In this document: positions 2-51,566 of the stretch, piece by piece
Position numbering within the stretch: position 1 is the first letter of the stretch
Layout: every line of letters starts with the position of its first letter
NCBI GenBank assembly: GCA_021372615.1
Contig: JAJFUB010000034.1
Coordinates: forward strand, 34,927 to 98,926
Length of the DNA: 64,000 nt
Direction of reading: 5' to 3'
Source of the DNA: a bacterium
Lineage (GTDB): Bacteria > Armatimonadota > Zipacnadia > Zipacnadales > UBA11051
The notes under the pieces: generated by a model
What the model was told of the DNA's origin: nothing
Seen by the model: the letters and a program-made list of their open reading frames with translations, nothing else
The model's database searches: none
Made by a program: the position numbers and the translations under genes

Positions 2-532
2 AACGCCGACCAGGTCGCGTACATGAAGCGCTGCGTCGCGGCCTTCTGCGAGGTCTGCGTGCCGGACTTCATGACCTTCGGCGAGGACATGAGCTACAAC
101 CACGGGCCGATGATCGGCAAGGCCCAGTTCGATGAGTTCATGGCGCCCTACTACCGCGAGATCATCCCGGTCCTGCGCGCCCGCGACATCGTGTGCCTCA
201 TTGACAGCGACGGGCAGGTCGAGCCGCTGATCCCCTGGTTCGAGGAAGTCGGCCTGCAGGGCATCCTGCCGCTGGAGCGCATGGCCGGCGTGGACGTGAA
301 CCGCATCCGCCAAAGGCACCCGCAGTGGCGGATGATCGGGGGCTTTGACAAGACGGTCATGCACCTGGGCGAAGCAGCCATCCGGGCGGAGTTCGAGCGC
401 CTCATGCCGGCGGCGCGGGCGGGCTACTTCGTCCCCTCGGTGGATCACCAGACCCCGCCCGGCGTGTCGCTTCAGGACTACCGGCTGTACGTGCGGCTGC
501 TCAAAGACTTCATGGCGGAGGCGTGCCGATGA
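2..532 (+). CDS. URO-D family protein (uroporphyrinogen decarboxylase / MtaA-type methyltransferase fold), C-terminal part; 5' end lies outside the window
   Basis: Reading frame is open to the window edge (NADQVAY precedes the first Met). The translation (MSYNHGPMIGKAQFDEFMAPYYREIIPVL...GGFDKTVMHLGEA...FVPSVDHQTPPGV) resembles the C-terminal half of URO-D-fold proteins. Stop TGA 530-532 overlaps the ATG of the next gene (ATGA). Confidence 0.55.
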   Translation, partial: NADQVAYMKRCVAAFCEVCVPDFMTFGEDMSYNHGPMIGKAQFDEFMAPYYREIIPVLRARDIVCLIDSDGQVEPLIPWFEEVGLQGILPLERMAGVDVNRIRQRHPQWRMIGGFDKTVMHLGEAAIRAEFERLMPAARAGYFVPSVDHQTPPGVSLQDYRLYVRLLKDFMAEACR

Positions 533-3290: not shown

Positions 3291-3315
3291 AGTATGACTT
3301 GGAGGCAGCGTTCGC

Positions 3316-5514
3316 ATGCGCGTACCGTATAGCTGGCTGATGGAGTTCCTGCAGGCTGACATCGCGGCGCCCGACTTGGCGCACGTGCTGACGATGGGCG
3401 GGCTCGAAGTGGAGGAGATCCGCGACTGGACCTCCGACGACGGCCAGGCGAGCGACCAGATCCTGGTCACGAAGGTCACCGCCAACCGCGGCGACATGCT
3501 GTCGATCCTGGGCGTGGCGCGGCAGGCCGCAGCGCTGCTGCAGACCACCTACAAGCTGCCCGACATCCCGTCGGACTCCATCACCGATCCGGTCGGCGGG
3601 GGGCTGCAGGCGAGCGACGGCCGCGTGACGATCGAGCTGGCCGATCCGGTCGGCTGCCCGCGCTACTCGGGGCTGCTGCTGGAGGGCATCAAACTGGCGC
3701 CCTCGCCCGCGTGGCTGTCCCACCGCCTCGAAGCCGCTGGCATGAGGCCGCTGATCAATGTCGTGGACTGCACCAACTATGTGATGCTGGAGCTGGGCCA
3801 GCCGCTGCACGCCTTCGACTTCAAGCTGCTGCGCCGGGGCCACATCATCGTCCGCCGCGCCACCGAGGGCGAGCAGATCCTGACCCTCGATCGCCAGTGG
3901 CGGACGCTGACGGCCGAGGACCTGCTCATCACCGACCCCTCGGGCCCGGCGGCGCTGGCGGGCGTCATGGGCGGAGCGGACACCGAGATCAACGACAAGT
4001 CCACGACCGTCCTGATCGAGAGCGCGCACTTCGACCCCACCACCATCCGCAAGACGTCCCTGCGCCTCGGCCTGTCCAGCGAGGCCAGCTACCGCTTCGA
4101 GCGGCACGTGGACCCCAACGGGACGCTGCGCGCCGTCGCCCGGGTGACCCAGCTTATCCGGCAGACCGCCGGCGGGGAGATCATCGGCAAGGCCCTCGAC
4201 GCCCGGGCCGAGGACTTCGCACCCCGGCCGATCACACTCAGGCCCGAGCGCTGCAACGCCATCCTGGGCACGAGCCTGACCGCCGAGGACATGTCCCGCT
4301 GCCTGAAGGCGATTGACTTCGGCGTCGAGGCCACGGGTGCCGCGTCGTGTGCGGCGGGGCCCGTGGCCGGGGCGGCGCAAGCAGCGGCGGGGCCCGGCGC
4401 ACACGACGCGCCACCCGCCGCCTTGACAGTGCGGGTCCCGCGCCTGCGCTGGGACATCGAGCGCGAGATTGACCTCATCGAGGAAGTCGCGATCATCTAC
4501 GGGTATGACAACCTGCCGATGACCGTGCCGGGCAAGCTGGCCCAGAGCGGGCTGTTCACGCGACGGCAGAAGCTGACACGTCAGGTGGGTGCGGTGCTGC
4601 GCGAGTGCGGCCTGAACGAGAGCTTCAGCTTCTCGGTGTCGTGCCCGGCCGATCTGGACCGCCTGGGCTTCGGCCCCGACGCCTCCGAGCGCACGATGCT
4701 GCCGCTGTCGAACCCGATGATTGACACACAGTCGCACATGCGCACGACACTGCTGCCCGCGATGCTGGAGGCAGCCGAGAACAACGTCCGCCAGCGCGTG
4801 ACGGATGTGGCCCTGTATGAGACCAACAAGGTCTTCGTGCCCGTGACCGGCGAGCCCCTCCCGCAGGAGCCGCAGCGCGTCGCCGGGATCATCATGGGCT
4901 CGGTGCTGACCGCCGACTGGAACGCCTCCGAGGAGCTGAAGCACCCGGACTTCTTCCTGGTCAAGGGGATCGTCGAGCAGGTCTGCGACAGCCTGGGCCT
5001 CACGGACGTGAGCTTCGCGCGCACCCAGCACCCCACGTTCCATCCCGGCCGTTGCGCGGCGCTGGTCATCGGCGGCCAGGCGGCAGGCGTGCTCGGCGAA
5101 GTTGCCGCGAGTGTGCAGGCGGCGTACGACCTGCCCGACCGCGCCTATGCCTTCGAGCTGGACCTGGAGGCCCTGCTGGCCGGGGCCTGCGACTTCAAGC
5201 CCTATGCTCCGCTGCCGCGCTTCCCGGCGGTGGGTCGCGACCTGGCGCTGGTGCTGCCCGATGACGACGCCCACACGGCGGCGCGGCTGGAGGAGATCAT
5301 CCGGGCGGCGGGCGGGGAGATGCTGCAGACGGTCGCGCCCTTCGACCTGTTCATGGACGCCCAGCGCCTGGGCGCGGGCGTCAAGAGCCTGGCGTTCAGT
5401 CTGGAGTTCCGCGCGCCGGACCGCACGCTGACGGACGACGAAGTGGACGCCGCCATGGCCGCCATCCGCGAGCGCGTGGCGACCGAGGCCGGAGCGAAGG
5501 TGCGGGACAGCTAG
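3316..5514 (+). CDS. pheT: Phenylalanine--tRNA ligase beta subunit (short form lacking N-terminal tRNA-binding domain)
   Basis: Translation MRVPYSWLMEFL... shows B3/4 and B5 domain motifs and a C-terminal FDX-ACB-like region typical of PheT; 732 aa. The antisense ORF 3229-5874 was rejected. Confidence 0.85.
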   Translation: MRVPYSWLMEFLQADIAAPDLAHVLTMGGLEVEEIRDWTSDDGQASDQILVTKVTANRGDMLSILGVARQAAALLQTTYKLPDIPSDSITDPVGGGLQASDGRVTIELADPVGCPRYSGLLLEGIKLAPSPAWLSHRLEAAGMRPLINVVDCTNYVMLELGQPLHAFDFKLLRRGHIIVRRATEGEQILTLDRQWRTLTAEDLLITDPSGPAALAGVMGGADTEINDKSTTVLIESAHFDPTTIRKTSLRLGLSSEASYRFERHVDPNGTLRAVARVTQLIRQTAGGEIIGKALDARAEDFAPRPITLRPERCNAILGTSLTAEDMSRCLKAIDFGVEATGAASCAAGPVAGAAQAAAGPGAHDAPPAALTVRVPRLRWDIEREIDLIEEVAIIYGYDNLPMTVPGKLAQSGLFTRRQKLTRQVGAVLRECGLNESFSFSVSCPADLDRLGFGPDASERTMLPLSNPMIDTQSHMRTTLLPAMLEAAENNVRQRVTDVALYETNKVFVPVTGEPLPQEPQRVAGIIMGSVLTADWNASEELKHPDFFLVKGIVEQVCDSLGLTDVSFARTQHPTFHPGRCAALVIGGQAAGVLGEVAASVQAAYDLPDRAYAFELDLEALLAGACDFKPYAPLPRFPAVGRDLALVLPDDDAHTAARLEEIIRAAGGEMLQTVAPFDLFMDAQRLGAGVKSLAFSLEFRAPDRTLTDDEVDAAMAAIRERVATEAGAKVRDS

Positions 5515-16736: not shown

Positions 16737-17294
16737 ATGGCCAACAACGAGGTGGTGATGCCTTATGTGCAGCAGTGGGCGAACTACCTGGTTGGCGAGG
16801 GCTGCCGGCCGCCGGTCGTCAACGAGGGCAACAGGTGGCCCACGCGGCAGGAAGTGATCGCGGCCATCGAGGCAGAGGGCCTGCTGGCAGTGCCTCACGG
16901 CAGCGAAGAGGTCATCGTGCGGCCCCCTGCGGGCGCCCCGGAGGCAGTCGAGGGACTGCTGCGCCACGTGGTCGAGGTGCGGTGGGACGCGACAGGTGCG
17001 TTGGGGGAGGCAGGGCAGTCATCGTATCTCGTGATATTCCAGTGCCGGGACTGGGATCGCCTTGGGAACGATGATGTCGGCCTCTTCATCCATGGGCAGA
17101 ACTGGCCTCTAGAGGTCTTCCTGGTGCACCGTCTCGCCCAGGAATGCGGGCAACTTGTTCTGTACCCAAGCGGCGGCGGCGTCCCTCTCGTAGTCGGTCC
17201 CGACTCCGGCCCTGGCCAACTGGCCGGCCTCTGGCCGGAGGCTGATCGGAGAGAAGGCGGCTGCAAGTGGCTCTACGAGCAGATGAGCTGCTGA
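16737..17294 (+). CDS. Hypothetical protein (185 aa), no recognisable domain
   Basis: ATG 16737 is preceded by GAGGAG. Coding-like composition. Sits in a slightly lower-GC patch between GH95 and a URO-D-like gene. Confidence 0.4.
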   Translation: MANNEVVMPYVQQWANYLVGEGCRPPVVNEGNRWPTRQEVIAAIEAEGLLAVPHGSEEVIVRPPAGAPEAVEGLLRHVVEVRWDATGALGEAGQSSYLVIFQCRDWDRLGNDDVGLFIHGQNWPLEVFLVHRLAQECGQLVLYPSGGGVPLVVGPDSGPGQLAGLWPEADRREGGCKWLYEQMSC

Positions 17295-17347: not shown

Positions 17348-18394
17348 ATGGACAGCCGCCAGCGCGTTCTCGCCGCCATGAACTTCACCGGGCCGGACCG
17401 CTGCCCCATCCACCACTACTGCTTCCCCGGCGCGATCTGGCGCCACGGGCAGAGGCTACTCGACCTCGTCGAGAAGTACCCCGACGATTTCGACAACGAG
17501 AACATCAAGGCCAACGCGCAGGCCCACCAACTCGCGGCCAACGAGAGCGCCGAGGACATCATCGAGTGGGTGGATGGCTGGGGCACGACGTGGCGGCGGA
17601 TGCGCGGCTATACCTCGGGCGAGGTCCACCAGCCCGCCCTGCCCGACTGGGACGCCTGGCGTGGCTACGAGTTCCCCCCACTGCCCGATGACAAGCACTT
17701 CGCGGACTTCGCGGCCTCCGTCCAGCCGCGGCAGGAGGCCGGGGAGTTCGTGCGCGCCGGCGGCGGCCCGTTCTTCCAACACATGCAGCATCTGCGCGGC
17801 AACGCCAACTACTACGTAGACCTGGCCGAGGATAACGAGGGGGTCAACGAACTGGCCGACCGCATGGTCGCCTACAACCTGTACTCCATCGAGCGCTATG
17901 TGCAGATGGGCGTGGACTGCATCGCCTTCGGCGACGACTGGGGCGCCCAGCACGCCCTGCTCATCCACCCGGACATGTGGCGCCGGTTCTTCAAGCCCCG
18001 CTATGCCAGGATGTTCGCCCCTGCCCGCGAGCACGGGATCCAGGTCTGGTTCCATTCGGACGGGTGGATCCTGGAGATCATCGAGGACCTCATCGAGATC
18101 GGCGTGACGCTGCTGAACCCCCAGCATGACATCATGGGCACGCGGCGCGTGGGGGAGATCGTCCGGGGCCGCTGCTGCATCCGCACCGACATCAGCCGCC
18201 AGACGGTCATCCCCTTCGGCACGCCCAACGACATTCGCGCGGCGGTCAGGGAAGCCCTCGAGGCCTTCAGCACCGACGCCGGCGGCTGCATGCTCCACGG
18301 TGAGATCGGCCAGGAAGTCCCCTTCGAGAACATCGAGGCGCTGTATGCAGCGTTCTATGAGTACGGGCAGTACCCGATGGAGTGGCGGAGGTAG
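17348..18394 (+). CDS. URO-D family protein (uroporphyrinogen decarboxylase / methylcobamide methyltransferase MtaA-like fold)
   Basis: ATG 17348 is preceded by AAGGAG. Translation (...FFQHMQHLRGNANYYVDLAED...GVDCIAFGDDWGAQHALLIHPDMWRRFFKPRYARMF...HSDG...) fits the URO-D TIM-barrel family. 348 aa. Confidence 0.65.
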   Translation: MDSRQRVLAAMNFTGPDRCPIHHYCFPGAIWRHGQRLLDLVEKYPDDFDNENIKANAQAHQLAANESAEDIIEWVDGWGTTWRRMRGYTSGEVHQPALPDWDAWRGYEFPPLPDDKHFADFAASVQPRQEAGEFVRAGGGPFFQHMQHLRGNANYYVDLAEDNEGVNELADRMVAYNLYSIERYVQMGVDCIAFGDDWGAQHALLIHPDMWRRFFKPRYARMFAPAREHGIQVWFHSDGWILEIIEDLIEIGVTLLNPQHDIMGTRRVGEIVRGRCCIRTDISRQTVIPFGTPNDIRAAVREALEAFSTDAGGCMLHGEIGQEVPFENIEALYAAFYEYGQYPMEWRR

Positions 18395-18397
18395 CCC

Positions 18398-18808
18398 ATG
18401 AGTTCATCCAAGGCCTCACCGCTGGGGATCATCCTGCTCATCGGGCTGATGGTCGTCTTCTTCAGCCCGGCGCGCTCGACCATCCCCCAGCAGGAAGCGG
18501 ACGCCATCCGCGCCCGGTTCGGCGTCCGCCCCGGTGCGGTAGTCGTCTTCCAGAACCCTGGGTGAGGGGCCTGCACCATGCTCTTTGAGCAGCTCGATGC
18601 CGTGGGCATCAGCTATGTGCCGGTCAATGTCACCGCCTCAGAACGCGCCATCCAAACGCTGCGGGACCTGGGGAAGAACAGCTTCGGCATGACGACACGG
18701 ATGCCGACACCGACGACGCTGGTGGGGAGGCGAGTCATCCGGGGAGCGGATGTGAAGAGGATCCAGCAGGCCCTGATCGAGGAGCGGAAGGGTAGCTCAA
18801 CTCGCTGA
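18398..18808 (+). CDS. Putative selenoprotein: membrane-anchored glutaredoxin/NrdH-like thioredoxin-fold protein with in-frame TGA (18563-18565) read as Sec in a U-G-A-C (CxxC-type) redox motif
   Basis: ATG 18398, 4 nt after the URO-D stop, opens a 55-codon ORF (MSSSKASPLGIILLIGLMVVFFSP...GAVVVFQNPG) ending at TGA. The same frame continues GACTMLFEQLDAVGISYVPVNV... (track ORF 18578-18808). Joined, the sequence AVVVFQNPG-U-GAC-TMLFEQLDAVGISY aligns residue for residue with the glutaredoxin pattern VVIY-x3-CPYC-x10-GVxY. The downstream RMPTPTTLVGRRVIRGADVKRI matches the cis-Pro TVPxIFIxGxxIGGxDD region. Neither half has a complete fold on its own. Confidence 0.55.
18591..18614 (+). promoter_or_regulatory. 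Candidate bacterial SECIS-like hairpin downstream of the in-frame UGA
   Basis: agctc-gatgcc-GUG-ggcatc-agct forms a ~10-bp stem with one bulge and a GUG apical loop whose G lies ~37 nt after the UGA. A smaller hairpin tgctc-ttt-gagca starts 11 nt after the UGA. Consistent with bSECIS geometry but not diagnostic. Confidence 0.3.
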
Positions 18809-19768
18809 ATCCATGTTCTTCGTCTTGAGCACGCGCAGCAACGTCTGCATGTTCTCCTGGAAGCTGCCGGTCGTGAAGTCCATCGCCTGATCGCCCTCTC
18901 GCAGCGGCGTGCCGCCGGGGGCCGCGCCACCGTCTGCGGCTGGCCCGATGGTGACCGGTACAACCATGCCGCCCTGTTCGAGGGCATACTTGTACTCGTA
19001 TTCGACCCACTCTGATCTAAGGCCGGCCTCGCTCACGAAGAGCAGGATGAAACCCTCGGCCGCAGCGGTCTCGATGCTACGCCGCATGATCCCGGCCAGG
19101 TCCACGCCCGCAGCGTCATCATCGTCGAAGTAGACCCGGTATTCGTGCTGCCTGAGAGCCTCGGCAATGGGTCTGACGAGTTCCTGATCTTCCCGCGAAT
19201 AGGCCATGTAGATCGTCACACGCCGCGAGAGCCCTGTGACCGCCGCGAGTTGCTCGTCCCAGTCGTGCGTCAGATCCACGTTCGCCGTGTATTTGCCCGG
19301 AAGCCCCCTGATGTACTCCAGCTCCATCTGCACCCACTTGGAGTTGCGCGCGTTGGGGCTGTCACAGAGCAGGAACCACGTGCGCGCCTCGATCTCGCGC
19401 CTGATCAGGTCATCCAGCTCGGCGTTGTCGTCCAGGCAGCGCAGGAAGAACAGCAAGGGATTGTGTCCCTTGGCCTCCAGTGCATTGCGGACACGGCGGA
19501 CCTCTTCAAGATCCCGGTGCGAATGGGAAACAAAGATCCACGCGCCTTCGGGGGCGGGTTCGCCCGGCCCGCCCTCTGCACGCGCCGAGGGGGCGGGGGC
19601 CAGGCCCGTGGGCCCGTCAACGGCCAGCTTGTCTCGCACGAGACCATGGCGCACGTCCTGTGCTAGCTCGAGGTCGTCGTCCACTGCGCCCACTAGCTCG
19701 CTGTTGCTGAGGTGGCCGCGAGCGTTGAGTAGCTGGAGGACCTTGCTCGACGCCTGCTCGATGTTCAC
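18797..19768 (-). CDS. Tandem TIR-domain protein (two Toll/interleukin-1 receptor-like domains) with short N-terminal helical (wHTH-like) region
   Basis: GTG start 19768 preceded by AGGAGA. Domain 1 reads IFVSHSHRDLEEV...LLFFLRC...SKWVQMELEYI. Domain 2 reads IYMAYSREDQELV...ILLFVSEAGLRSEWVEYEYKYA. Both carry a conserved Glu in the WxxxE position. Local GC is below the window average. The 3' end overlaps the selenoprotein candidate by 12 nt, and only 11 nt separate it from the GH127 stop. Confidence 0.6.
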   Translation of the reverse strand: MNIEQASSKVLQLLNARGHLSNSELVGAVDDDLELAQDVRHGLVRDKLAVDGPTGLAPAPSARAEGGPGEPAPEGAWIFVSHSHRDLEEVRRVRNALEAKGHNPLLFFLRCLDDNAELDDLIRREIEARTWFLLCDSPNARNSKWVQMELEYIRGLPGKYTANVDLTHDWDEQLAAVTGLSRRVTIYMAYSREDQELVRPIAEALRQHEYRVYFDDDDAAGVDLAGIMRRSIETAAAEGFILLFVSEAGLRSEWVEYEYKYALEQGGMVVPVTIGPAADGGAAPGGTPLREGDQAMDFTTGSFQENMQTLLRVLKTKNMDSAS

Positions 19769-21699: not shown

Positions 21700-22125
21700 C
21701 TATTCGTCGGCAATCCGGTAGAACTGCCGGTGAGCGTCGTCGGCATACTCCACCCGGCCCTCCTTGAGGACCAGGCACAGGTTCCGTGCGTCGTACAGCA
21801 GGCTCACATCGGTGGCGGGGTCGCCGGACACGACGAGCAGGTCGGCTAGCTTGCCCGGCTCCAGTGTGCCGAGGGAAGGGAGCTTTCGATAGGCGGCGGC
21901 ATTTACCTGCGTCGCGGCGGTGAGGGCCTCCAGGGGCGACAGGCCGCAGGCCACCAGCTCCTGTAGCTCAACCAGTGTGCGGTCGCCCAGGCGCCAGGTG
22001 CGGGGCGTCCCCGGATAGTCGGTGCCGACCCTGGTCGGTAGCGATAGGCAGGGCATTCGGGGCCGTCGCGGCATGACGGAGGTTTCACCACACCGGAGGC
22101 GGGGGCCTGCCCGGCGCCTGGGCAT
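21700..22125 (-). pseudogene. Amidohydrolase-family C-terminal fragment (N-terminal ~300 aa of a normal amidohydrolase missing)
   Basis: Translation ...VGTDYPGTPRTW...LSPLEALTAATQVNAAAYRKLPSLGTLEPGKLADLLVVSGDPATDVSLLYDARNLCLVLKEGRV matches the metal-dependent amidohydrolase C-terminus (GSLEVGKxADLVVLDxNP...V). Only ~110 alignable residues remain before the unrelated divergent promoter at 22126-22196. Confidence 0.45.
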
Positions 22126-22196: not shown

Positions 22197-22793
22197 ATGA
22201 CACGCAGGAGGGTGACTCCAGTGGATGAGCTTCTGTCCCTCGCCGAGGCCGCTGAGACTCTCAACGTTAGCGAGATCACGGTCAAGCGCTACATCTACGC
22301 CGGGAAGCTCAAGTCCCACAAGCTGCCCGGCGGCCGACACCGCATCCCCCGGTCGGAACTGACGCGTCTGCTGGAGGGTGGGGCGGCCCCGCCGGCCCCC
22401 GAGGAGGTCGTGACCGGCCTCGAAGCCCGGGTGGACGAGCTGGAGGCGGCCCTGGAGCACATCTCGGCGGAGCTGCAGGTGCTGGCGGCCTGGTGCGCGC
22501 GCCGCCAGGAGGAGCTGCCCGAGACGGAGGCGCCGGCCGCGACACAACGCGTCGTCGAGGTGCTCGGGCCCGGCTGCACCAAGTGCCGCAAGCTGCACGC
22601 GACGGTCCTGGAAGTGGTGGGGGAGTCATTCGCCGAGACCTTCCAGGTTGCGCATGTGACCGACCTGGACCACATCACGGCCTATGGGCCGCTCCTGACG
22701 CCTGCCCTCGTCATTGACGGCAAGGTTGTCTCAGCGGGACGAGTGCTGCTGGCCGATGAGGTGCAGCGGCTGTTGGCCAAGGCGCTTCAATAG
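22197..22793 (+). CDS. Fusion protein: N-terminal excisionase/MerR-type HTH (HTH_17-like) + C-terminal small thioredoxin-like domain (redox-active disulfide protein 2 / Thioredoxin_3 family, CxxC = GCTKC)
   Basis: The N-terminus LLSLAEAAETLNVSEITVKRYIYAGKLKSHKLPGGRHRIPRSEL matches the excisionase-family DNA-binding helix. A Pro/Ala/Glu linker follows. The C-terminus VVEVLGPGCTKCRKLHATVLEVV...GPLLTPALVIDGKVVSAGRV matches the TM0983-like thioredoxin family. An alternative GTG start at 22221 has a better AGGAGG spacing. Confidence 0.6.
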   Translation: MTRRRVTPVDELLSLAEAAETLNVSEITVKRYIYAGKLKSHKLPGGRHRIPRSELTRLLEGGAAPPAPEEVVTGLEARVDELEAALEHISAELQVLAAWCARRQEELPETEAPAATQRVVEVLGPGCTKCRKLHATVLEVVGESFAETFQVAHVTDLDHITAYGPLLTPALVIDGKVVSAGRVLLADEVQRLLAKALQ

Positions 22794-22811
22794 GCACTCC
22801 GGAGGCACGAA

Positions 22812-23252
22812 GTGAGCAATCGCTGCACATCGCAGGCCCGTCCGTCGGTTGCCCTGCTGGGCTGTAGTGGCATCGGGCAGCTCATGTCCACTGTCGTGCG
22901 CCGTGCCTGCCTCCGCGTGGCGGAGCAACACCCCGAGGTCGTGCTGCTGTCGGTCGGCGCGCTGACCGGCGACGTGCCGGAGGTGCTGCAGCAAGGCCGG
23001 GCATTGCCTGTCATCCTCGTGGACGGCTGCCGCGAGCACTGCGGCACGATCCTGTGCGAAGCCAAGGGCCTCAACGTCGTCTCGAAGCTGTTTGCGCTCA
23101 CACTGGTCCAGAGGGACCATATGCGGCTGGCGGGTGAGGACCGCGCGAACCTGGGCGAGATCGGGCTGGCGGCGGTCGCCGACGTGGCCGCCGGGATCAG
23201 CGCCGAGGTGCGCCGGCTGCAGGACGATCTAACCGCCGAGGAGGTGGCATGA
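22812..23252 (+). CDS. DGC-domain protein (putative zinc-binding, PF08859-like)
   Basis: Contains the motif PVILVDGCREHCGTILCEAKG that gives the family its name, plus N-terminal LLGCSGIGQL. 146 aa. Confidence 0.5.
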   Translation: MSNRCTSQARPSVALLGCSGIGQLMSTVVRRACLRVAEQHPEVVLLSVGALTGDVPEVLQQGRALPVILVDGCREHCGTILCEAKGLNVVSKLFALTLVQRDHMRLAGEDRANLGEIGLAAVADVAAGISAEVRRLQDDLTAEEVA

Positions 23253-23653
23253 TGCCCGATCGGGTCTGCCTGCAGCCCTGCCTGGGCAGCACCAGCGCCG
23301 CCGCGACGGTAGGCCGACAGGCTACCTACGCCGCCCTGGCCGAGTTGGGGCGGGCCGCCGACCTCGGCTGCGCCCCGGCGCTGTTCGCCGAAGTCCCCGA
23401 GGACGTCATCTTCGTCCAGCAGGACTATGTCATCGCCATCGAGTCATGCGACAGGCTCTGTGCCAATCACCTCGTCGCGCAGAAGGGCTATCCCGTGCAC
23501 GCGACCGTGCGCGTGGATGAGGTCCTCAGCGGTGCGGGCATTGACAGCGCGGTCCTGCCGGCGGAGACCATCCCGCTGGATCATCCGGCCGTGGTCGCCG
23601 TGTGCGCGGAGATCGTGCGCGTGGCGCGGCAGCTACTGGAGGGGATGGCGTGA
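23249..23653 (+). CDS. Cys-rich DGC-like paralogue (DGC replaced by ESC: VIAIESCDRLCANHL)
   Basis: Overlaps the upstream gene by 4 nt (ATGA). Similar size and Cys spacing to the preceding DGC protein. Confidence 0.4.
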   Translation: MMPDRVCLQPCLGSTSAAATVGRQATYAALAELGRAADLGCAPALFAEVPEDVIFVQQDYVIAIESCDRLCANHLVAQKGYPVHATVRVDEVLSGAGIDSAVLPAETIPLDHPAVVAVCAEIVRVARQLLEGMA

Positions 23654-24498
23654 GGAGCCGGCTCTGCGCCGAGATGTTCGCCGAAGCCGCGGGCTCGTAC
23701 GTCCTGTGCTTCTTCGGGCCTGGCGCGGTGGCCGTCTCGGTCCTGATGGGCGGGCACACGGGCCTCTGGCAGGTGGCCTCCGTCTGGGGCTTTGCCATCG
23801 CGCTGGCGATCTACGCCGTGGGCTCGGTCTCCGGGGCGCACCTGAACCCGGCGGTGACGCTGGCGATGGCCGTGTACCGCAAGTTCCCGGCCGGCAAGGT
23901 GCTGCCGTACGTGCTGGCGCAGATGGCCGGCGGCGTTTTGGCGGCGGCCACGCTGCTGGTGCTCTTCAACGGTACGTGCCTGCACTTCGAGGCCACGCAT
24001 CACATCGTGCGCGGGATGCCCGGCAGCCAGCTCTCGGCCATGTGGTTCGGCGAGTACTTCCCCAACCCCGCGGTCTACGGCACCGACGCCGAGGCCTTCG
24101 TGCAAGTCGGCGTGAAGACCGCCTTCCTGGCCGAGGCCGTGGGCACGGCGTTCCTGCTGTTCTTCATCATGGCGCTGACGGACCCCCGCAACGACGCGTC
24201 CGCCGGCAGGGCGAACCTGCATCCCCTCCTCATCGGCTTTGCGGTGGCCATCATCATCAGCATCGTGGCCCCCCTGACCCAGGCAGGACTGAACCCCATG
24301 CGCGACTTCGCCCCGCGCATCGTGGCGTACTTCGCCGGGTGGGGGACCATCGCCATCCCCGGCCCGCGCCGCGTGGACGTCTGGGTCTACATCCTCGCCC
24401 CGCTGGTGGGCGGCCTGGCGGGCGCCGGGGCATACCAGGCGCTCATCCATGCCGGACGCCTGGCCATGGCCCCGGGCTCCCAGGCCGAGGCGGCCTGA
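23650..24498 (+). CDS. MIP-family channel, aquaglyceroporin (GlpF-like); first NPA intact (HLNPAVT), second motif NPM (GLNPMRDFAPR)
   Basis: Six TM segments inferred from hydrophobicity. The GlpF-like signatures AGGVLAA and GLNPMRDFAPRIVAYFAGWG are present. A GTG start at 23650 overlaps the upstream stop (GTGA); the alternative ATG at 23674 (MFAEAAGSYVL) is also plausible. Confidence 0.75.
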   Translation: MRSRLCAEMFAEAAGSYVLCFFGPGAVAVSVLMGGHTGLWQVASVWGFAIALAIYAVGSVSGAHLNPAVTLAMAVYRKFPAGKVLPYVLAQMAGGVLAAATLLVLFNGTCLHFEATHHIVRGMPGSQLSAMWFGEYFPNPAVYGTDAEAFVQVGVKTAFLAEAVGTAFLLFFIMALTDPRNDASAGRANLHPLLIGFAVAIIISIVAPLTQAGLNPMRDFAPRIVAYFAGWGTIAIPGPRRVDVWVYILAPLVGGLAGAGAYQALIHAGRLAMAPGSQAEAA

Positions 24499-24546
24499 GA
24501 CACGAGCCCTCCTCACGGACCACGGCCGTCTCCCACCCCCTGTGAC

Positions 24547-24585
24547 CATAACCTCACCTTAACACGCGCCTAACCCCCACTTAAC
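24547..24585 (+). promoter_or_regulatory. Pho-box-like array: four direct repeats C-N-TAAC (CATAAC, CTTAAC, CCTAAC, CTTAAC) at exact 11-bp spacing
   Basis: Seen directly at 24547, 24558, 24569 and 24580, about 80-115 nt upstream of the porin-pstSCAB-phoU cluster. The 11-bp periodicity matches PhoB/PhoP-type tandem binding sites. Confidence 0.5.
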
Positions 24586-24662
24586 CGCCCCGGGATAAGG
24601 TAACCACAGCGTCTGGTACCGACGGTCGTGAGACTCCTACGGGGGAATCCAACGATCCATAG

Positions 24663-25664
24663 GTGGTTGCCTTGAGGAACAAGCAACTCGCCGGCTTCGT
24701 GGGGCTGGCGGCATGTCTGGTGGCGTGCGTGTCGGGGGCTCATGCAGAATGGAAGATCAGTGGGTACACCCAGGCACGCTACAATGTCTGGGACGACGCC
24801 GTGGACGATGACGCGTTCGATCTGCGGCGGGTACGGGTCAAGCTGGAGGGGCCGGTCGGCGAGGTGGGCGAAATCAAGCTGCAGGTGGACCTGGCGGGGC
24901 TGGACGATGACAATGGCGAGATCGAGCTGAAGGACGCGCTGATCACTCGCCCGCTGAATGGGACGTGCAAGGCGGCCGTGGGCTTCACCTCCGTCCCCTT
25001 CGGGTACGAAGTACCGGTCTCCAGCTCCAAGCGCTTGGCGCTGGAGCGCAGCGAGGCGGCGCGGCGGCTCTTCCCTGGCGAGCGCGCCACCGGCGTGTGG
25101 TTCATGGTCCGGCCACCCGAGGGCAAGCCGAGCCAGCCGCAAGTGGACCTGGGCCTGACCAACGGCATGTCCAAGTGGTATGACGAGGACAGCAGCGGCA
25201 ACGCCGACAGCGACAGCTTCGCCTTCCTCGGGCGCGCGCAGTGGTCCGTCCTCAATACCGGCGTGGCCGGGGTAAGCTACATGGGCGCCACACGAAAGCG
25301 GGACCTCGCCGGCGTGTCCACCGACTGGGGAAGCGAGAACGTCTTGGGCCTGCATGCCCGTGTGCCGCTGGCCCGTCGACTTACCCTCCAGGGCGAGTAC
25401 TACACGGGAGACTACAACAACACCGACGCCGACGGCTGGTATGGGACGCTGGAGTACGCGATTCCCGAGACGACGGCCACGGTCTTCTATCGCTATGACG
25501 AGTTCGACCGAGGGGCGACGAACGACTACACCCGCCACACCGCCGGCGTGGCGTGGGACGTGAGCAGCAACGAGCGCCTGACGCTGCAGGGCGAGGCGCT
25601 GGAGGACTACGCCGGCGACAAGATCACGAACTTCGCCCTGCAATACCAGGTCAAGTATCCCTGA
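24663..25664 (+). CDS. Phosphate-selective porin O/P family outer-membrane protein
   Basis: Signal peptide or lipobox (GLAACLVACVSGAHA). Beta-strand-rich sequence with alternating hydrophobic residues ending ...ALQYQVKYP. Sits upstream of pstS, as oprO/oprP do in Pho regulons. The start is GTG 24663 or TTG 24672. Confidence 0.55.
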   Translation: MVALRNKQLAGFVGLAACLVACVSGAHAEWKISGYTQARYNVWDDAVDDDAFDLRRVRVKLEGPVGEVGEIKLQVDLAGLDDDNGEIELKDALITRPLNGTCKAAVGFTSVPFGYEVPVSSSKRLALERSEAARRLFPGERATGVWFMVRPPEGKPSQPQVDLGLTNGMSKWYDEDSSGNADSDSFAFLGRAQWSVLNTGVAGVSYMGATRKRDLAGVSTDWGSENVLGLHARVPLARRLTLQGEYYTGDYNNTDADGWYGTLEYAIPETTATVFYRYDEFDRGATNDYTRHTAGVAWDVSSNERLTLQGEALEDYAGDKITNFALQYQVKYP

Positions 25665-25687
25665 GCACAAGAGAGGGCAATCAGACA

Positions 25688-26629
25688 ATGAAAACGGTAA
25701 CTGCCGTGGCAGTATTGGGTGCGGTGTTGGCAGCGTGGCTGTGCTGCACCGGGTGCAGCCGCCCGCCGGACCAGTCCGCCGTGGCGCCGCCCATGCCGGG
25801 AACCGAGGCCCAGCCGGGCCCACAGGCCGCCGGCGCCACCGTCAGCCAGGTCGGCTCCACCACCGTGCTGCCGCTGGCCGAGAAGTGGCGCGACGCGTTC
25901 AACCAGCAGCGCCCGGAAGTGAACCTGGCCGTCTCGGGTGGCGGCTCGGGCGCGGGGATCGAGGCGCTCAGCAACAAGTCGGCCCAGATCGCCAACGCCT
26001 CCCGCGAGATCAAGGCCAGGGAGAAGGAGAGCGCCGCCGCCAAGGGCGTCAACCCGGTCGAGCACCTGGTCGCCTACGACGGCATAGCGGTCATCGTCTC
26101 CAGGGATAACCCGCTCACGGAGATCTCCGTGCAGAAGCTCTCGGACATCTACACCGGGAAGATCACGAAGTGGGACGAGGTGGGCGCGAAGGGCCTCGGG
26201 GCCATCCAGCTCGTGAACCGCGACTCCGCCTCGGGCACCTATGACGCCTTCAAGGAGATGGTCGTGCAGCTCGGCGGCAAGGACAAGCAGCGCGATTACG
26301 CCGCCGGCACGATGAACCAGACCTCGAACGAGGCCGTCAAGACGACCGTGGCCCAGGGCAGGGGCGCCATCGGCTACGTCGGCCTGGGCTATGTGGACGA
26401 CACGATCAAGACGCTGAAGGTCATCGGGCTCAAGGGCGGCGCGGCAGTGGCGCCGAGCGTGGACACGGTCATGAACAAGTCCTATCCGATCTCCCGTGCC
26501 CTGTACATGTACACCGATGGCGAGCCGAGTGGCGCCATCAAGGACTACCTGGACTACGTGAAGAGCGACGCCGGCCAGGCCATCGTCGTGCAGCTCGGGT
26601 TCGTACCCATCCGCAAGCTGTCCCGGTGA
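25688..26629 (+). CDS. pstS: Phosphate ABC transporter substrate-binding protein PstS (lipoprotein)
   Basis: Signal/lipobox MKTVTAVAVLGAVLAAWLCCTGC. PstS-family motifs SGGGSGAGIEAL, ...ANASREIK..., SASGTYDAF and GAIGYVGLGYV. Confidence 0.85.
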   Translation: MKTVTAVAVLGAVLAAWLCCTGCSRPPDQSAVAPPMPGTEAQPGPQAAGATVSQVGSTTVLPLAEKWRDAFNQQRPEVNLAVSGGGSGAGIEALSNKSAQIANASREIKAREKESAAAKGVNPVEHLVAYDGIAVIVSRDNPLTEISVQKLSDIYTGKITKWDEVGAKGLGAIQLVNRDSASGTYDAFKEMVVQLGGKDKQRDYAAGTMNQTSNEAVKTTVAQGRGAIGYVGLGYVDDTIKTLKVIGLKGGAAVAPSVDTVMNKSYPISRALYMYTDGEPSGAIKDYLDYVKSDAGQAIVVQLGFVPIRKLSR

Positions 26630-26641
26630 TGGCTGGAGGCT

Positions 26642-26699
26642 GTCCAGTAGGGCGGGCGGCTCGCCTGCCCGCGCGGGCGGGCCGCCCGCGCTACTGGGA
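26642..26699 (+). terminator. Large imperfect intercistronic hairpin between pstS and pstC (possible partial terminator/attenuator)
   Basis: tccagtagggcgggcggc...gccgcccgcgctactggga form ~19-bp arms with 2 mismatches, 13 nt after the pstS stop. Confidence 0.35.
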
Positions 26700-26823
26700 C
26701 CATATAGCCAATCGCGGGACACAACACTAGCACAGCCGTACCCTCCCGGCGGCAGGAGCGGCTCGGCGTGGGCACCATCCACGAGCCGCTCTTGTCGCAC
26801 GAGCGCAGACCGAAGGTCGGGGC

Positions 26824-27720
26824 ATGAGGAAGACCACGCAGCGGATACAGGAATGGGTCATGGAGCGCACGATCACCCTCGCCGGGATCGCGGCGATCGT
26901 GTTCGTGCTGCTGATCTTCGGCTTCCTGCTGCGCGACTCGCTGCCCCTGCTGCACACGGCGTCACCCGCGGCGCTGCTGACCGACACGCGCTGGCTGCCG
27001 ACCTCCGAGCCCCCCCGCTTTGGGTTGCTGCCGCTGCTGCTCGGGTCGCTGTACGTGACCTTCGGGGCGCTGGTGCTGGCGGTGCCGCTGGGGCTGGGGT
27101 GCGCCGTGTTCATCGCCGAAGTGGCCCCGCCACGCTGGCGCGAATGGCTGAAGCCCGCCGTGGAGCTGCTCGCCGCTGTCCCCTCGGTGGTTTTCGGGTT
27201 CGTCGGGATGCTCATGGTGGGGCCGTGGCTGGCAGAGAGGCTCCAACTGCCCATCGGGCAGTTCGCCGCCCTGGGGTCGCTGCTGCTGGCCTTCATGGCG
27301 ATCCCGACCATCGTGTCGGTGGCCGAGGACGCCCTGACCGCCGTGCCACGGGCGCTGCGCGACAACTCGCTGGCGATGGGCGCGACCGAGTGGCAGACAA
27401 TCTCGCGCATCACCGTGCCGGCGGCGCGCTCGGGCATCATCGCCGCCTGCCTGCTGGGCCTGGGCCGGGCCATCGGGGAGACGATGACCGTGCTGATGGT
27501 CACGGGCAACGCGGCCGTCATCCCCCACGGCCTGGCGGGCTTCATGCAGCCGGTGCGGACCATGACCGCCACGATCGCCGCCGAGATGGGGGAGACGGCG
27601 TACCACACGCCGCACTACTACGCCCTGTTCATGGTCGGGCTGTTGCTGTTTGGCATCACGCTGGTGACGAACATGATCGCGGATGTCATCGTGCACCGGG
27701 CCGGAGGGGTGAAGCTATGA
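26824..27720 (+). CDS. pstC: Phosphate ABC transporter permease PstC
   Basis: Multiple TM helices and the EAA-like motif region (AMGATEWQTISRITVPAARSGII). Standard order after pstS. Confidence 0.85.
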   Translation: MRKTTQRIQEWVMERTITLAGIAAIVFVLLIFGFLLRDSLPLLHTASPAALLTDTRWLPTSEPPRFGLLPLLLGSLYVTFGALVLAVPLGLGCAVFIAEVAPPRWREWLKPAVELLAAVPSVVFGFVGMLMVGPWLAERLQLPIGQFAALGSLLLAFMAIPTIVSVAEDALTAVPRALRDNSLAMGATEWQTISRITVPAARSGIIAACLLGLGRAIGETMTVLMVTGNAAVIPHGLAGFMQPVRTMTATIAAEMGETAYHTPHYYALFMVGLLLFGITLVTNMIADVIVHRAGGVKL

Positions 27721-28553
27721 GGCTGCCCCCCGGCCTCGTGCAGAGGCTGGCCTTCGCCGCCCTCACCGGGGCGATGATCGTGGTTGCGCTACCGGTCGTC
27801 GGCATCGTCACCATGATGATCGTCAAGGGCGCGCCGGGGCTGACGGCCAAGCTGTTCTTCCAGGGCTCCCAGGCCCTGTTGCCGGCCATCGTCGGCACGG
27901 TGTATCTGGTGCTACTGACGGCCGCCATCGCCGCGCCGGTGGGGATCCTGGCGGCGGTCTACCTGAGCGAATACGCCCGGCAGGGCCCGCTGGTGCGGGC
28001 CATCCGGCTGGCGATCGTGAACCTGGCGGGCGTGCCCTCGGTCGTGTACGGTCTGTTCGGGCTGGCGCTGTTCGTGATGATGCTGAAGTTCGGCCGGTGC
28101 CTGCTGTCGGGCAGCGCGACACTGGCGCTGCTCGTGCTGCCGCTGATCATCAGCGCCTCGGAAGAGGCGCTGCGGCAGGTGCCGCGGCGGCTGCGGGATG
28201 GCTCGCTGGCCCTGGGGGCCACCAAGTGGCAGACGGTGCGGCGCGTGGTGCTGCCCAACGCCTTGCCGGGGATCATCACCGGCCTGATCCTGGCCATCAG
28301 CCGCGCCGCGGGAGAGACGGCTCCGATCCTGTTCACGGCCGCCTTCTTCTCCCTGACCCACCCGTATCCCAAGTCCGTCTTCTACCCGGTCCTGGCCCTG
28401 CCGTACCAGCTCTTCGTCATGTCCACGGAGATGCCGGAGGTCACGACCACGAGCAAATGGGCCGCGGCCCTCGTACTGGTCGTTCTCGTCTTGGGGATTA
28501 ACGCCGGGGCCATCGTGTACCGGGCCCGGCTGCGGAGGAAGCAACGGTGGTAG
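27717..28553 (+). CDS. pstA: Phosphate ABC transporter permease PstA
   Basis: ATG overlaps the pstC stop (ATGA). EAA motif [25 protein letters not shown]-rich. Confidence 0.85.
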
Positions 28554-29374
28554 AACCTGCGACCATTCAGGCGGGGGCGGAGGCCATCCGCCCGCCGGAG
28601 GTCATTGTCCGGCCGCCCGGAGAGATCCGGCTGGCGACCCACGACCTGCACATGCGCTACGGGTCGTTCCATGCCCTCAAGGGCATCAGCATGGCGGTGC
28701 CCGCGCGGCAGATCACGGCCCTGATCGGGCCGTCGGGATGCGGCAAGTCGTCGTTCCTGCGCTGCTTCAACCGCATGAACGACGTGATTGACGGCGTGCG
28801 CATCGAGGGTGACGTACTGCTCGACGGGGAGGACATCAACCGGCCGGGGCTCGACGTAGCCGAGCTGCGCAAGCGTGTGGGGATGGTCTTCCAGGCGCCG
28901 AACCCCTTCCCGATGAGCATCTACGACAACATCGCCTACGGCCCGCGCCTGCACGGCAGCCCGGGTCGCGAGGAGCTGGACCAACTGGTCGAGGAGAGCC
29001 TGCGGGGCGCGGCGCTGTGGGACGAAGTGAAGGACAAGCTGCGGCAGTCGGCGCTGGGACTGTCGGGCGGGCAGCAGCAGCGGCTGTGCATCGCCCGCGT
29101 GCTGGCTGTGCGACCCGAGGTGCTGCTGATGGACGAGCCCGCCAGCGCCCTCGACCCGACCGCCACTTTCCACATTGAGGAGCTGATGCTGCGCCTCAAG
29201 GACCAGTACACGATCGTCATCGTGACCCACAACATGTACCAGGCCTCGCGTGTCTCGACGTACACCGGCTTCTTTCTGCTGGGCGAGCTGGTGGAGTACG
29301 GCCCGACCGAGCGCATCTTCGAGAATCCCGTGGACCGGCGCACTGATGACTACGTGCGCGGCCGCTTTGGGTAG
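28547..29374 (+). CDS. pstB: Phosphate ABC transporter ATP-binding protein PstB
   Basis: Walker [13 protein letters not shown] signature LSGGQQQRL and Walker [15 protein letters not shown] start overlaps the pstA end. Confidence 0.9.
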
Positions 29375-29380
29375 GCCCCC

Positions 29381-30085
29381 ATGGATAACGGCACCATGCG
29401 CACCCGCCAGTCTTTCGACGAAGAACTGCACCAGCTCGAGCAGCGCCTGCTGCAGTTCGGCTCGTACGTGGAGGGCATGCTCGAGCAGGCCACACGCGCC
29501 CTCGTGGGACAGGACCTGAACCTCGCCCGCCAGGTCGTCGCCGCGGACGACCGGGCCGACGAGATGGATCTGGAGATCGAGCACACCTGCATGCGCCTGC
29601 TGGCCCTGCAGCAGCCGATGGCGCGTGACCTGCGCATGATCGGCACCGTGATGAAGATCATCGTGGATGTCGAACGCATCGGCGACTACTCGGTGGACAT
29701 CGCCAAGGCCGCGCTGAGCCTGGCCGACACGGCGTACTTCAAGCCGCTGGTGGACCTGCCGAGGATGAGCGAGCTGGTGCGCGGCCTGCTCCGCTGCGCG
29801 CTGGAGGCGCTCGTGAAGCGCGACTTGGACCTGGCGCGGGAGTGTGGGGAGATGGACAACGCCGTGGACGCCATGTGGAAGAGCCTGCGCGCCGAGTTGG
29901 AGGGGATCATGCAGCAACACCCCGAGGTCGTGCCGCAGGCCGTGGCGCTGATCCTCGTGACGCGCTACCTCGAGCGCATCGCTGATCATGCCGTCAACGT
30001 CGCCGAGCGCGTCACGTACATCGAGACAGGCCACGTGGAGACGCTGGTGCGCCGCCACAGCGGGGACGCCAGCGAGGCCACGTAG
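29381..30085 (+). CDS. phoU: Phosphate signalling complex protein PhoU
   Basis: Two PhoU repeats (DDRADEMDLEIE..., ERIGDYSVDIAKAA / ERIADHAVNVAERV). 234 aa. Confidence 0.85.
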   Translation: MDNGTMRTRQSFDEELHQLEQRLLQFGSYVEGMLEQATRALVGQDLNLARQVVAADDRADEMDLEIEHTCMRLLALQQPMARDLRMIGTVMKIIVDVERIGDYSVDIAKAALSLADTAYFKPLVDLPRMSELVRGLLRCALEALVKRDLDLARECGEMDNAVDAMWKSLRAELEGIMQQHPEVVPQAVALILVTRYLERIADHAVNVAERVTYIETGHVETLVRRHSGDASEAT

Positions 30086-50412: not shown

Positions 50413-51516
50413 TCATCGCGTCATCTGCGGGTTGCACATCTCGCCGACGGCCGCGACCATCGCCCGGAAGTTCTCGGGCGGGATAGGCGGGTTGATCTCG
50501 CTGGAGGTGGCGACGAACATGCCGCCGGTGCGCAGGGCGTCGGTCTCGCGGATATGCCGCAGCACCTCGGCCCGGACCTGCTCGGGCGTGCCGCGCTCCA
50601 TCAGGTCCACCCCGTCCACACCGCCGGCCCACACCATCTGCGGCCACGCCTGCTTGAGCCCCACGATCTCCATGCCCACCCCCGGCTCCAGGCAGTAGAA
50701 GCCGTCCACGCCGCAGGCCATCAGGTCCGGCAGGGCCTTCCGGTAGTTGCCGTCGCTGTGGTACAGCACCTTCACCCCGGCCGCGTGCCAGGCGGCGGTC
50801 ACCTGCTCCACGTACGGGTAGTGGAAGCGGGCCAGGAAGTCCGGCGGGAAGATGGGGCCCTGCTTGGTGGCGAAGTCCTCGGCGAGGAGGATGACCGGCG
50901 ACAGCTCGCCGTCCGCGACCGCTCGCACCCACTCCAGGCGCCGCGCTCCGCTGGCCGCCATGTACCGCGCGAAGACCTCGGGGTAGTCGTAGGTGAAGTA
51001 CGAGAACAGCTCCAGGCCCATCGCATCATAGGCGGAACAGAAGCCCACGTCGTGGTACTTGAGGATCACGGTCTCACCGATCTGCGCTTGCAGGCCGGTC
51101 ATGTAGCGGCGCCACTCCGCGCGGGCCGGGGCCGGCTCGATCACCTGGGCCTCGAGCGCCTCGGTCCGTCGCACCAGCCAATCCCGCGCCCCCTCGGTCG
51201 TGTCGAAGGGACGGCTTACGCGCCACGCCGTCCAGTTGTCGTTCTGGTACACGAAGCCGTCTTCCGTCGTGACGCGCCCCGTGCCGCGGGGCGCCACCGG
51301 CGGCATGATGAGGTCGGTGGTCTGGCGGATCACCGCGCAGATGTCCTGCACGGTGTAGTCGAAGCCCTCGATCGTTCTGCCGGTCCAGTCGGCGATGACC
51401 CGCGGGTTGTAGCTGAGCTGCTCCAGGATCGGCACGCGGTCCACCGGCTGCAGGTTCAGGGCGGCCTCGACCCGCTCACGCTTGGACATGACATCGGTGG
51501 GGAAGAGGCGTTCCAT
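50413..51516 (-). CDS. URO-D family protein (third paralogue in window)
   Basis: ATG 51516 follows GGAGG. Translation MERLFPTDVMSKRERVEAALNLQPVDRVPILEQL...YHSDGNYRKALPDLMACGVDGFYCLEP... is typical of URO-D/MtaA TIM-barrel proteins. The upstream extension to 51744 was rejected. Confidence 0.6.
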   Translation of the reverse strand: MERLFPTDVMSKRERVEAALNLQPVDRVPILEQLSYNPRVIADWTGRTIEGFDYTVQDICAVIRQTTDLIMPPVAPRGTGRVTTEDGFVYQNDNWTAWRVSRPFDTTEGARDWLVRRTEALEAQVIEPAPARAEWRRYMTGLQAQIGETVILKYHDVGFCSAYDAMGLELFSYFTYDYPEVFARYMAASGARRLEWVRAVADGELSPVILLAEDFATKQGPIFPPDFLARFHYPYVEQVTAAWHAAGVKVLYHSDGNYRKALPDLMACGVDGFYCLEPGVGMEIVGLKQAWPQMVWAGGVDGVDLMERGTPEQVRAEVLRHIRETDALRTGGMFVATSSEINPPIPPENFRAMVAAVGEMCNPQMTR

Positions 51517-51566
51517 GGGGCGGGGCCTCCACAGGGATGGGAGCGCGGCTGCCAGCGGTCCCGGGG

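Follow-up and report, generated by a model that had tools for sequence, protein, structure and literature searches.

Positions 18398-18808 of a bacterial DNA stretch of 64,000 nucleotides (contig JAJFUB010000034.1; the whole stretch is called the window below) raise the question of whether two short open reading frames (ORFs), separated by one TGA, are two genes or a single gene in which the TGA is read as selenocysteine (Sec). The ORF listing gives 18398-18565 (55 aa) and 18578-18808 (76 aa), and in the public annotation, the downstream fragment (P0001) is called "hypothetical protein LLH23_05595". Sequence comparison indicates that the locus is very probably one gene, coding for a 136-residue membrane-anchored glutaredoxin (Grx)/NrdH-like thiol-disulfide oxidoreductase with a UGA-encoded Sec at position 56 (U-G-A-C). 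An earlier note on this DNA had proposed such a selenocysteine-containing glutaredoxin-like protein across the TGA, and all of its checks that were run support this overall reading.

The elements of the gene are the following:

18398-18808, + strand: putative selenoprotein gene, complete, 136 codons including Sec56, stop TGA at 18806-18808 (based on translation, Pfam, substitution rates (dN/dS) and homologues)
18387-18391, + strand: Shine-Dalgarno-like GGAGG, 6 nt 5' of ATG 18398, read from the sequence
18413-18463, + strand: N-terminal hydrophobic segment, residues 6-22, ASPLGIILLIGLMVVFF, predicted transmembrane helix or signal-anchor (hydropathy and flanking charges; a helix in the AlphaFold model of the homologue P0004)
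18563-18565, + strand: in-frame TGA, predicted Sec56, first position of the U-G-A-C redox motif (18563-18574)
18707-18718, + strand: T104-P105-T106-T107, predicted cis-proline (cis-Pro) loop of the thioredoxin fold (P105 invariant in a 12-sequence alignment; aligned with the TPT/VP cis-Pro region of solved redoxins)

From ATG 18398, the frame runs through 55 sense codons, the TGA, and 80 further sense codons up to the stop TGA at 18806-18808. The coordinates of the earlier note hold: one frame covers 18398-18808 and is broken solely by the TGA at 18563-18565. The junction of the two ORFs is AVVVFQNPG-*-GACTMLFEQLDAVGISY, the same letters as in the AVVVFQNPG-U-GAC reported there. The joined product reads MSSSKASPLGIILLIGLMVVFFSPARSTIPQQEADAIRARFGVRPGAVVVFQNPG-U-GACTMLFEQLDAVGISYVPVNVTASERAIQTLRDLGKNSFGMTTRMPTPTTLVGRRVIRGADVKRIQQALIEERKGSSTR.

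A scan for in-frame TGAs with a coding signature on both sides was made on both strands of the 64 kb, with a G+C content at third codon positions (GC3) of at least 0.8, no other stop, and 40 codons on each side. Two were found, at 18563 and at 37769 on the minus strand. Just two such TGAs in 64 kb make the configuration at 18563 unusual for the window. The TGA at 37769 (minus strand) was rejected as a recoding site, as it appears to be the ordinary boundary of two adjacent genes in the same frame (...GLDEEA-TGA-DMSLFTIGG).

The window also allows the genetic code itself to be checked. Reassignment of TGA to a sense codon (e.g., Trp or Gly) is known in some uncultured bacterial lineages. In the window, however, TGA is the ordinary stop of 15 of the 42 confidently framed genes and, therefore, the organism uses the standard genetic code. 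Furthermore, in the whole 64 kb, a single internal TGA is flanked by coding signal on either side, and the homologues described below carry cysteine (Cys) in this column, not Trp or Gly. The probability of an alternative code is negligible.

Conservation of the TGA among homologues

Homologues are rare. A profile search brought up 19 proteins out of 5.8 billion, and 17 representatives out of 1.8 billion were retrieved by exhaustive HMMER searching with the 80 residues after the TGA as a query; a related-locus search of genome species representatives with a four-sequence alignment found none. The homologues, given below by their L and P numbers, come in two forms. The Cys forms, about 10, are single ORFs of 126-161 residues with the motifs RPG-CGPC, RPG-CGAC, GPG-CGDC, SPG-CPAC, NPH-CRPC and, in one case, CxxS. 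Cys occupies the column aligned with the TGA in the single-ORF homologues P0004, P0006, P0008, P0011, P0019-P0024 and L011. The Cys-containing homologues that the earlier note wished to see are hence at hand: the architecture is the same, and the Cys stands exactly in the U column.

The remaining database matches are fragments of 54-76 residues. All those for which the DNA was at hand are the downstream part of a split arrangement: a 55-73-codon ORF with a hydrophobic N-terminus, followed by a TGA at the aligned codon, followed by xxC. The contig of P0007, judged from its ORF layout, carries a URO-D gene and then a 55-aa and a 66-aa ORF in the same frame. The TGA lies at the identical codon in the following loci, which were drawn from different samples and assemblers (JGI, ENA, NCBI, Logan):

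L001-L003: junction HSPG-U-GGC
L004: junction U-GGC
L005: junction NPG-U-SAC
L006: junction NPG-U-GAC
L007: junction TPG-U-GVC
L008: junction TDT-U-PAC
L009/L013, L012, L014: junction NPG-U-GAC
L010, L016: junction NPG-U-GAC
L015: junction QPG-U-GAC

The TGA is, thus, conserved in at least 10 distinct metagenomic homologues of 32-86% identity. In a neighbour-joining tree, Sec and Cys forms are interleaved, with at least four Sec clades. Between the window and L001, the ratio of nonsynonymous to synonymous substitution rates (dN/dS) is 0.32 before the TGA (dS 0.80) and 0.17 after it. Such ratios indicate that both sides of the TGA are translated and under purifying selection. Together with the GGAGG located 6 nt before ATG 18398, the value of 0.32 also speaks for the upstream 55-codon ORF being coding, a point on which the earlier note had made its proposal depend.

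These data bear on two further explanations of the locus. A pseudogene, or a sequencing or assembly error, could account for an early stop in what is otherwise a normal CxxC redoxin gene: a single change from TGC or TGT to TGA suffices, and the window comes from a metagenome-assembled genome (MAG). On the contrary, the same TGA is found in independent assemblies from many samples, over the whole identity range given above, and purifying selection persists downstream of it. The base-call error that the earlier note had considered is countered by this retention of the TGA in many independent homologues, and a defect of any of these kinds is extremely unlikely.

The locus might also hold two small genes, a 55-residue membrane peptide and a 76-residue protein starting at ATG 18578, perhaps translated by termination and reinitiation. 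The public annotation of P0001 treats the locus in this manner, and a GAGG is present 10 nt before ATG 18578. However, the Cys homologues are uninterrupted single ORFs of the same architecture, and neither half is a domain: the first beta-strand (beta1) is encoded before the TGA and the rest after it. Nor is the restart codon conserved, since the downstream start ATG used by the annotators is GCG (Ala) in L010 and L016, and the gene callers choose differing starts among the homologues. Moreover, over 10 lineages have TGA as the in-frame stop throughout, with no case of TAA or TAG. Two separate genes are, hence, very improbable. Taken together, the conservation of the TGA, the selection on both of its sides and the lack of a conserved restart therefore lead us to exclude an error, a pseudogene and two independent genes, and to keep a single gene read through its TGA.

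Fold and predicted membrane anchor

With U replaced by C, the joined protein matches the Pfam family Glutaredoxin (PF00462) at 28.2 bits (gathering cut-off 22.9) over residues 48-92, a match that spans the TGA. The same family is matched by 11 of the 12 family members searched. In the family profile, the U/C column falls on the first of the two active-site Cys positions in the solved redoxins BC3987 (3zij, CPPC) and poplar Grx C1 (1z7p, CGYC), and T104-P105 aligns with the cis-Pro region of the same two structures. The C56 column and P105 are invariant in the 12-sequence family alignment. Two claims of the earlier note, the TGA at the first Cys of the active site and a cis-Pro region farther downstream, were borne out by these alignments, the first with a PF00462 score above the gathering cut-off.

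The structure prediction was made on the Cys homologue P0004, standing in for the window protein. Its AlphaFold model (predicted local distance difference test, pLDDT, 82.7) shows a transmembrane helix (8-21), a linker helix (31-40) and a redox domain in the order beta1, [CGPC] alpha1, beta2, alpha2, beta3, beta4, alpha3. As in Grx-type folds, the C/UxxC motif opens alpha1, and the cis-Pro precedes beta3. In a Foldseek search against the PDB, the structures closest to this model are BC3987, 7c10 and NrdH, with target-normalised TM-scores of 0.75-0.86. Because beta1 precedes the TGA, while alpha1 and the remaining fold come after it, neither half-ORF could fold alone; the earlier note had said as much, and the Pfam match and the P0004 model agree with it.

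The name "glutaredoxin-like" is only partly adequate. It is supported by the PF00462 score. However, the classical CPYC active site is absent from the family, whose motifs are UGAC, UGGC, USAC, CGPC, CGAC, CGDC and CPAC, and the closest structure is BC3987; short Grx/NrdH/thioredoxin-like redoxin is a better description than the one given in the earlier note. Among the NCBIfam models, matches were all below threshold, to YruB-type glutaredoxin-like proteins, mycoredoxin, NrdH and the "UXX-star" Grx-like (seleno)protein families. As judged from these scores, the family forms a distant branch of its own within the Grx-like superfamily.

The N-terminal transmembrane helix announced in the earlier note corresponds to the hydrophobic residues 6-22 (mean Kyte-Doolittle value 2.5). 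Each of the 17 full-length family members has one such segment, and in every one of them the N-terminal flank is more positive than the C-terminal one. By the charge-difference rule of thumb, an N-in/C-out anchor is therefore predicted, which would put the redox domain on the outside of the cytoplasmic membrane.

Candidate SECIS element and proposed decoding of the UGA

Decoding of UGA as Sec in bacteria involves a selenocysteine insertion sequence (SECIS) in the mRNA. The published constraints for bacterial SECIS (bSECIS) elements are an apical loop of 3-9 nt with a G in the first two loop positions (PMC13188914, Fig. 2 legend), an upper stem of 4-16 bp, a spacing of 16-37 nt between the UGA and the loop, and a minimum free energy (MFE) of at most -7.5 kcal/mol (PMC13188914). 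These constraints were tested through our own implementation. Two hairpins lie downstream of the TGA:

18591-18614, + strand: candidate bacterial SECIS AGCU(C)GAUGCC-GUG-GGCAUCAGCU, 26-49 nt after the TGA, in agreement with the bSECIS model
18579-18591, + strand: small first hairpin UGCUC-UUU-GAGCA, at the codons where the L005/L006 clade has its strong candidate SECIS hairpin

The hairpin at 18591-18614 has an upper stem of 6 bp, a bulged C18595, a lower stem of 4 bp and an apical loop GUG (18602-18604); the UGA-to-loop spacing is 36 nt and the free energy (dG) -12.3 kcal/mol. It is the GUG-loop hairpin that the earlier note had placed 26-52 nt downstream, and the suggested bSECIS check ended in its favour, with the constraints respected and the synonymous sites constrained. 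A hairpin obeying the bSECIS model is found in 11 out of 11 Sec-form sequences tested, against a background in which 20% of the 1463 TGA triplets of the window pass the model and 8% do so at -12 kcal/mol. The spacing of the qualifying hairpin is 36 nt in the close clade, 17 nt in L005 and L006 (8-bp stems, GGA loop), 28 nt in L007 and 21 nt in L008. Between the hairpins of L005 and L006, one compensatory change, from C-G to U-A, is observed.

In the close clade, about 50 nt 3' of the TGA are nearly invariant at the nucleotide level. Between the window and L001, the 17 codons that follow the TGA show a pairwise synonymous difference of 0.09, compared with 0.68 for the rest of the gene. Among seven sequences, synonymous variation is found at 5 of 16 codons in the hairpin region versus 35 of 46 farther downstream (Fisher p = 0.002). 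Across homologues of 70-86% identity, the hairpin at 18591-18614 is invariant save for the bulge, one pair and one change in L004. The close-clade changes are compatible with the structure: the bulged C is replaced by U, one A-U pair turns into G-U and, in L004, the stem shifts its register through a C-to-G change, giving 10 continuous pairs. The non-preferred codon GAT is kept, and its U pairs with the A of ATC in the hairpin stem. The hairpin at 18579-18591 has a loop without G and, hence, falls outside the bSECIS model; its stem is invariant in the close clade, while its loop varies (UUU, UUG, UUC). An outer closing helix of the MFE fold (GCAC/GUGC) was dropped, as it is unconserved in L001 and L004.

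Translation of the selenoprotein would start at ATG 18398 and would probably be coupled to that of the URO-D-like gene located upstream, which has its stop codon in the spacer that separates the Shine-Dalgarno sequence from the ATG. The hydrophobic N-terminus would then enter the cytoplasmic membrane, with the predicted N-in/C-out topology directing the redox domain toward the periplasm. At UGA 18563, the mRNA hairpin 18591-18614 would recruit SelB carrying Sec-tRNA(Sec), and Sec would be inserted instead of termination. The mature domain would alternate between a selenol/thiol and a selenenylsulfide (U56-C59) state: Sec56 would be the attacking and C59 the resolving residue, and disulfides of partner proteins or small molecules would be reduced or exchanged. 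In this scheme, Sec insertion, orientation, substrate, reductant and the link to the URO-D-like enzyme are what we infer.

Several observations weigh against the proposed reading. In the 64-kb window, selA, selB and selD are absent (Pfam sweep of about 50 ORFs), as is any tRNA, and so tRNA-Sec (selC). The element bound by SelB may be the hairpin at 18579-18591, the one at 18591-18614 or both. With 36 nt, the candidate SECIS stands close to the longest UGA-to-loop distance that the model allows (16-37 nt). At 69% G+C, the folding energies of the whole region are unexceptional (z = 0.3 to -2.5, relative to shuffles); for this reason, the bSECIS criteria were used together with their background rate and the synonymous constraint. 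In the close clade, the support from covariation is thin because the hairpin hardly varies. Rfam gave no match for the window at gathering thresholds, and 18500-18700 at E <= 10 gave two chance microRNA matches. Finally, the orientation of the anchor has a charge rule as its sole basis, and the URO-D-like neighbour is without an obvious signal sequence, an awkward fit to a periplasmic partner.

The UGA could also be recoded through SelB and SECIS to Cys, or to Sec or Cys depending on the selenium supply, by means of a tRNA(ReC)/SelC*-type tRNA. In that case, the protein would be a plain CxxC redoxin obtained in an uncommon way. At the level of the phylum, Sec use is indirectly supported by the description, in Armatimonadota MAGs, of [NiFeSe] hydrogenases that contain Sec and of canonical SelC (PMC13582414). 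Besides canonical SelC, tRNA(ReC)-like tRNAs, which permit SelB/SECIS-dependent decoding of UGA as Cys, occur in 5/5 Armatimonadota genomes with UXXU-type [NiFeSe] hydrogenases (PMC13582414), and the window belongs to this phylum. The conserved TGA, the Cys homologues and the SECIS-like hairpin would fit this route equally well. However, no such tRNA lies within the window, and the genomes in question also possess canonical SelC. The repeated switching between Sec and Cys (at least four clades) is the usual pattern of true selenoproteins and, if Cys alone were wanted, a single mutation from TGA to TGC or TGT would provide it. Recoding to Cys is, accordingly, considered improbable, even if less so than the explanations set aside above. 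On the sequence data, we are highly confident that one gene is present and that its UGA is recoded through the Sec pathway; most of this probability goes to the insertion of Sec, not Cys.

Neighbouring genes and comparison with known systems

The gene directly upstream is, as follows, a member of the URO-D family:

17348-18394, + strand: URO-D-like gene, upstream and probably co-transcribed (Pfam URO-D, 45.4 bits; TAG stop at 18392-18394)

Its longest ORF begins at 17267; the 348-aa orthologue in L012 points to 17348 as the start. The TAG stop lies inside the spacer between GGAGG and ATG of the selenoprotein gene, with a stop-to-start gap of 3 nt. A URO-D-like gene is found directly upstream also in L001-L003, L009/L013, L012, L014 and the P0007 contig, and none next to L005, L007, L008 and L017. 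A distant URO-D paralogue (25% identity) is located upstream of the distant Cys form P0021. This association is only a hint, because URO-D-like paralogues are common in the genome: three are present in 64 kb, at 2-532 (+), 17348-18394 (+) and 50413-51837 (-), in a region rich in glycoside hydrolases. The URO-D-like neighbour is better conserved (89-96% identity to its relatives) than the selenoprotein (73-86%). In L009/L013 (MTKZ01028999.1, 482-1626), the similarity of the URO-D-like gene to the window protein is split over two frames (residues 1-358 and 351-375), which points to a frameshift or to faulty assembly close to the 3' end of this gene.

Thiol-directed methyltransferases are among the URO-D-type enzymes. 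A more far-reaching picture can be drawn, which is speculative and probably does not hold in full: a selenoprotein family outside the published inventory of 119 families, with an outer-face, Sec-containing Grx-like domain working with the co-transcribed URO-D-like enzyme and, in Armatimonadota with tRNA(ReC), a UGA that might be read as Sec or Cys according to the selenium supply.

The surrounding genes code for glycoside hydrolases (among them GH95 and GH127) and GFO/IDH/MocA oxidoreductases, a setting typical of glycan degraders. The PheT gene of the window (3298-5514) shares 86% identity with its counterpart in an "uncultured Armatimonadia bacterium" MAG, and the next-best matches are other Armatimonadota. 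A scan for promoters and terminators around the selenoprotein gene gave nothing useful.

On the 3' side, a gene with two TIR-like domains, 18797-19768 (-), overlaps the end of the selenoprotein gene by 12 nt. It is identified by Pfam TIR_2 and ThsB_TIR and as ThsB-like by PADLOC; no ThsA-like partner was seen near it. The gene is missing from the otherwise syntenic L012/L013, in which the selenoprotein and GH127 genes are about 50 bp apart. In the same region of the window, an amidohydrolase at 21700-22125 (-) is shortened to 141 aa, against 393 aa in L012, and a sulfatase present in L012 is lacking. A defence-type gene seems to have been inserted here recently, together with a deletion.

Farther downstream, a conserved block at 22197-30085 (+) comprises an HTH_17-Thioredoxin_3 fusion with a CTKC motif (22197-22793), a DGC-domain protein (22812-23252), a MIP-family channel (23545-24498), a porin O/P, a Pst-type phosphate-binding protein, a permease, an ATPase and PhoU. 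The order from the HTH_17-Thioredoxin_3 fusion to the ABC permease is the same in L012; L013 stops earlier. The block may be a cluster for oxyanion (phosphate/arsenate) uptake or resistance, with its own thioredoxin-like regulator.

As far as the sequences tell, the locus at 18398-18808 is a genuine selenoprotein gene missed by annotation. The earlier note had foreseen this fate, and the public records of the Sec forms are all split into "hypothetical" ORFs; the present reading corrects this recurring annotation error. It adds to the bacterial selenoproteome a small family of membrane-anchored Grx-like redoxins, roughly half Sec and half Cys, and provides evidence for the use of selenocysteine in a glycan-degrading Armatimonadia lineage. 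If the outward orientation is true, the family would also be a compact model of an extracytoplasmic selenol-based oxidoreductase.

The inventory of prokaryotic selenoproteins published in 2026 comprises 119 families and subfamilies (PMC13188914), and its table contains nothing that corresponds to a membrane-anchored Grx-like UxxC protein. The kind is familiar, without conceptual surprise, because UxxC thioredoxin-fold proteins are the commonest bacterial selenoprotein type and a selenoprotein glutaredoxin (PF00462, UxxC) has been verified experimentally, e.g., Grx1 of Clostridium oremlandii (PMC13188914, Table 1). With Grx1, the window protein shares the short Grx fold, the Sec in first position of UxxC at the start of alpha1, and the existence of Cys-form homologues. 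The P0004 model superimposes on 7c10, the Cys form of Grx1, with a target-normalised TM-score of 0.86, a root-mean-square deviation (rmsd) of 2.2 Å and 20% identity. In contrast to Grx1, the window protein has in addition an N-terminal transmembrane segment and a linker helix of about 25 residues, with a predicted outward orientation of the protein, as well as an extra segment of about 7 residues (LGKNSFGMTTR) before the cis-Pro. The motif of its family is UGAC/CGPC/CGDC, not the Grx-type CPYC, and the family comes from Armatimonadota and unknown metagenomic bacteria, while Grx1 is clostridial.

Among solved proteins, BC3987 of Bacillus cereus (3zij/3zit) and NrdH (4hs1, 1r7h) are the best matches in sequence and structure. 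For BC3987, the profile E-value is 6e-7 and the target-normalised TM-score in Foldseek 0.84-0.86, with an rmsd of 1.5 Å for 3zij. The minimal four-stranded redoxin fold, the CxxC and the cis-Pro are shared with both. BC3987 and NrdH are, however, soluble, cytoplasmic, Cys-only proteins of 75-85 residues, unlike the window protein. Against the NrdH model (TIGR02194), the family reaches 22.6 bits, far from the cut-off of 85.75. CVQC and WSGFRP, which we take to be the typical NrdH motifs, are absent from all family members.

Distantly related, small Grx-like proteins that are often selenoproteins are found in the UXX-star families of NCBIfam (NF041212, NF041211 and NF047338; "distant Grx-like protein" in PMC13188914). 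NF041212 is matched weakly by 12 of the 12 family members, and the scores for the three models are far below the curated cut-offs (23.1 vs. 66, 21.3 vs. 100 and 16 vs. 97 bits, respectively). The Sec motifs of UXX-star proteins are UxxT and GxGU (PMC13188914, Table 1), in comparison with UxxC in the window family.

A last comparison concerns the TlpA/ResA/CcmG-type oxidoreductases. In the 12 members searched, no Pfam match to Redoxin or AhpC-TSA was obtained, and one member gave a single weak match to Thioredoxin_2. Compared with TlpA-like proteins, the window family has a smaller, Grx-type fold, without the extra N-terminal strands and the central insert. The predicted likeness lies in the layout: one N-terminal anchor carrying a thioredoxin-fold C/UxxC domain on the outer face of the membrane. 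In this respect, the TlpA/ResA/CcmG-type proteins offer the best analogy for a possible mode of action of the window protein.

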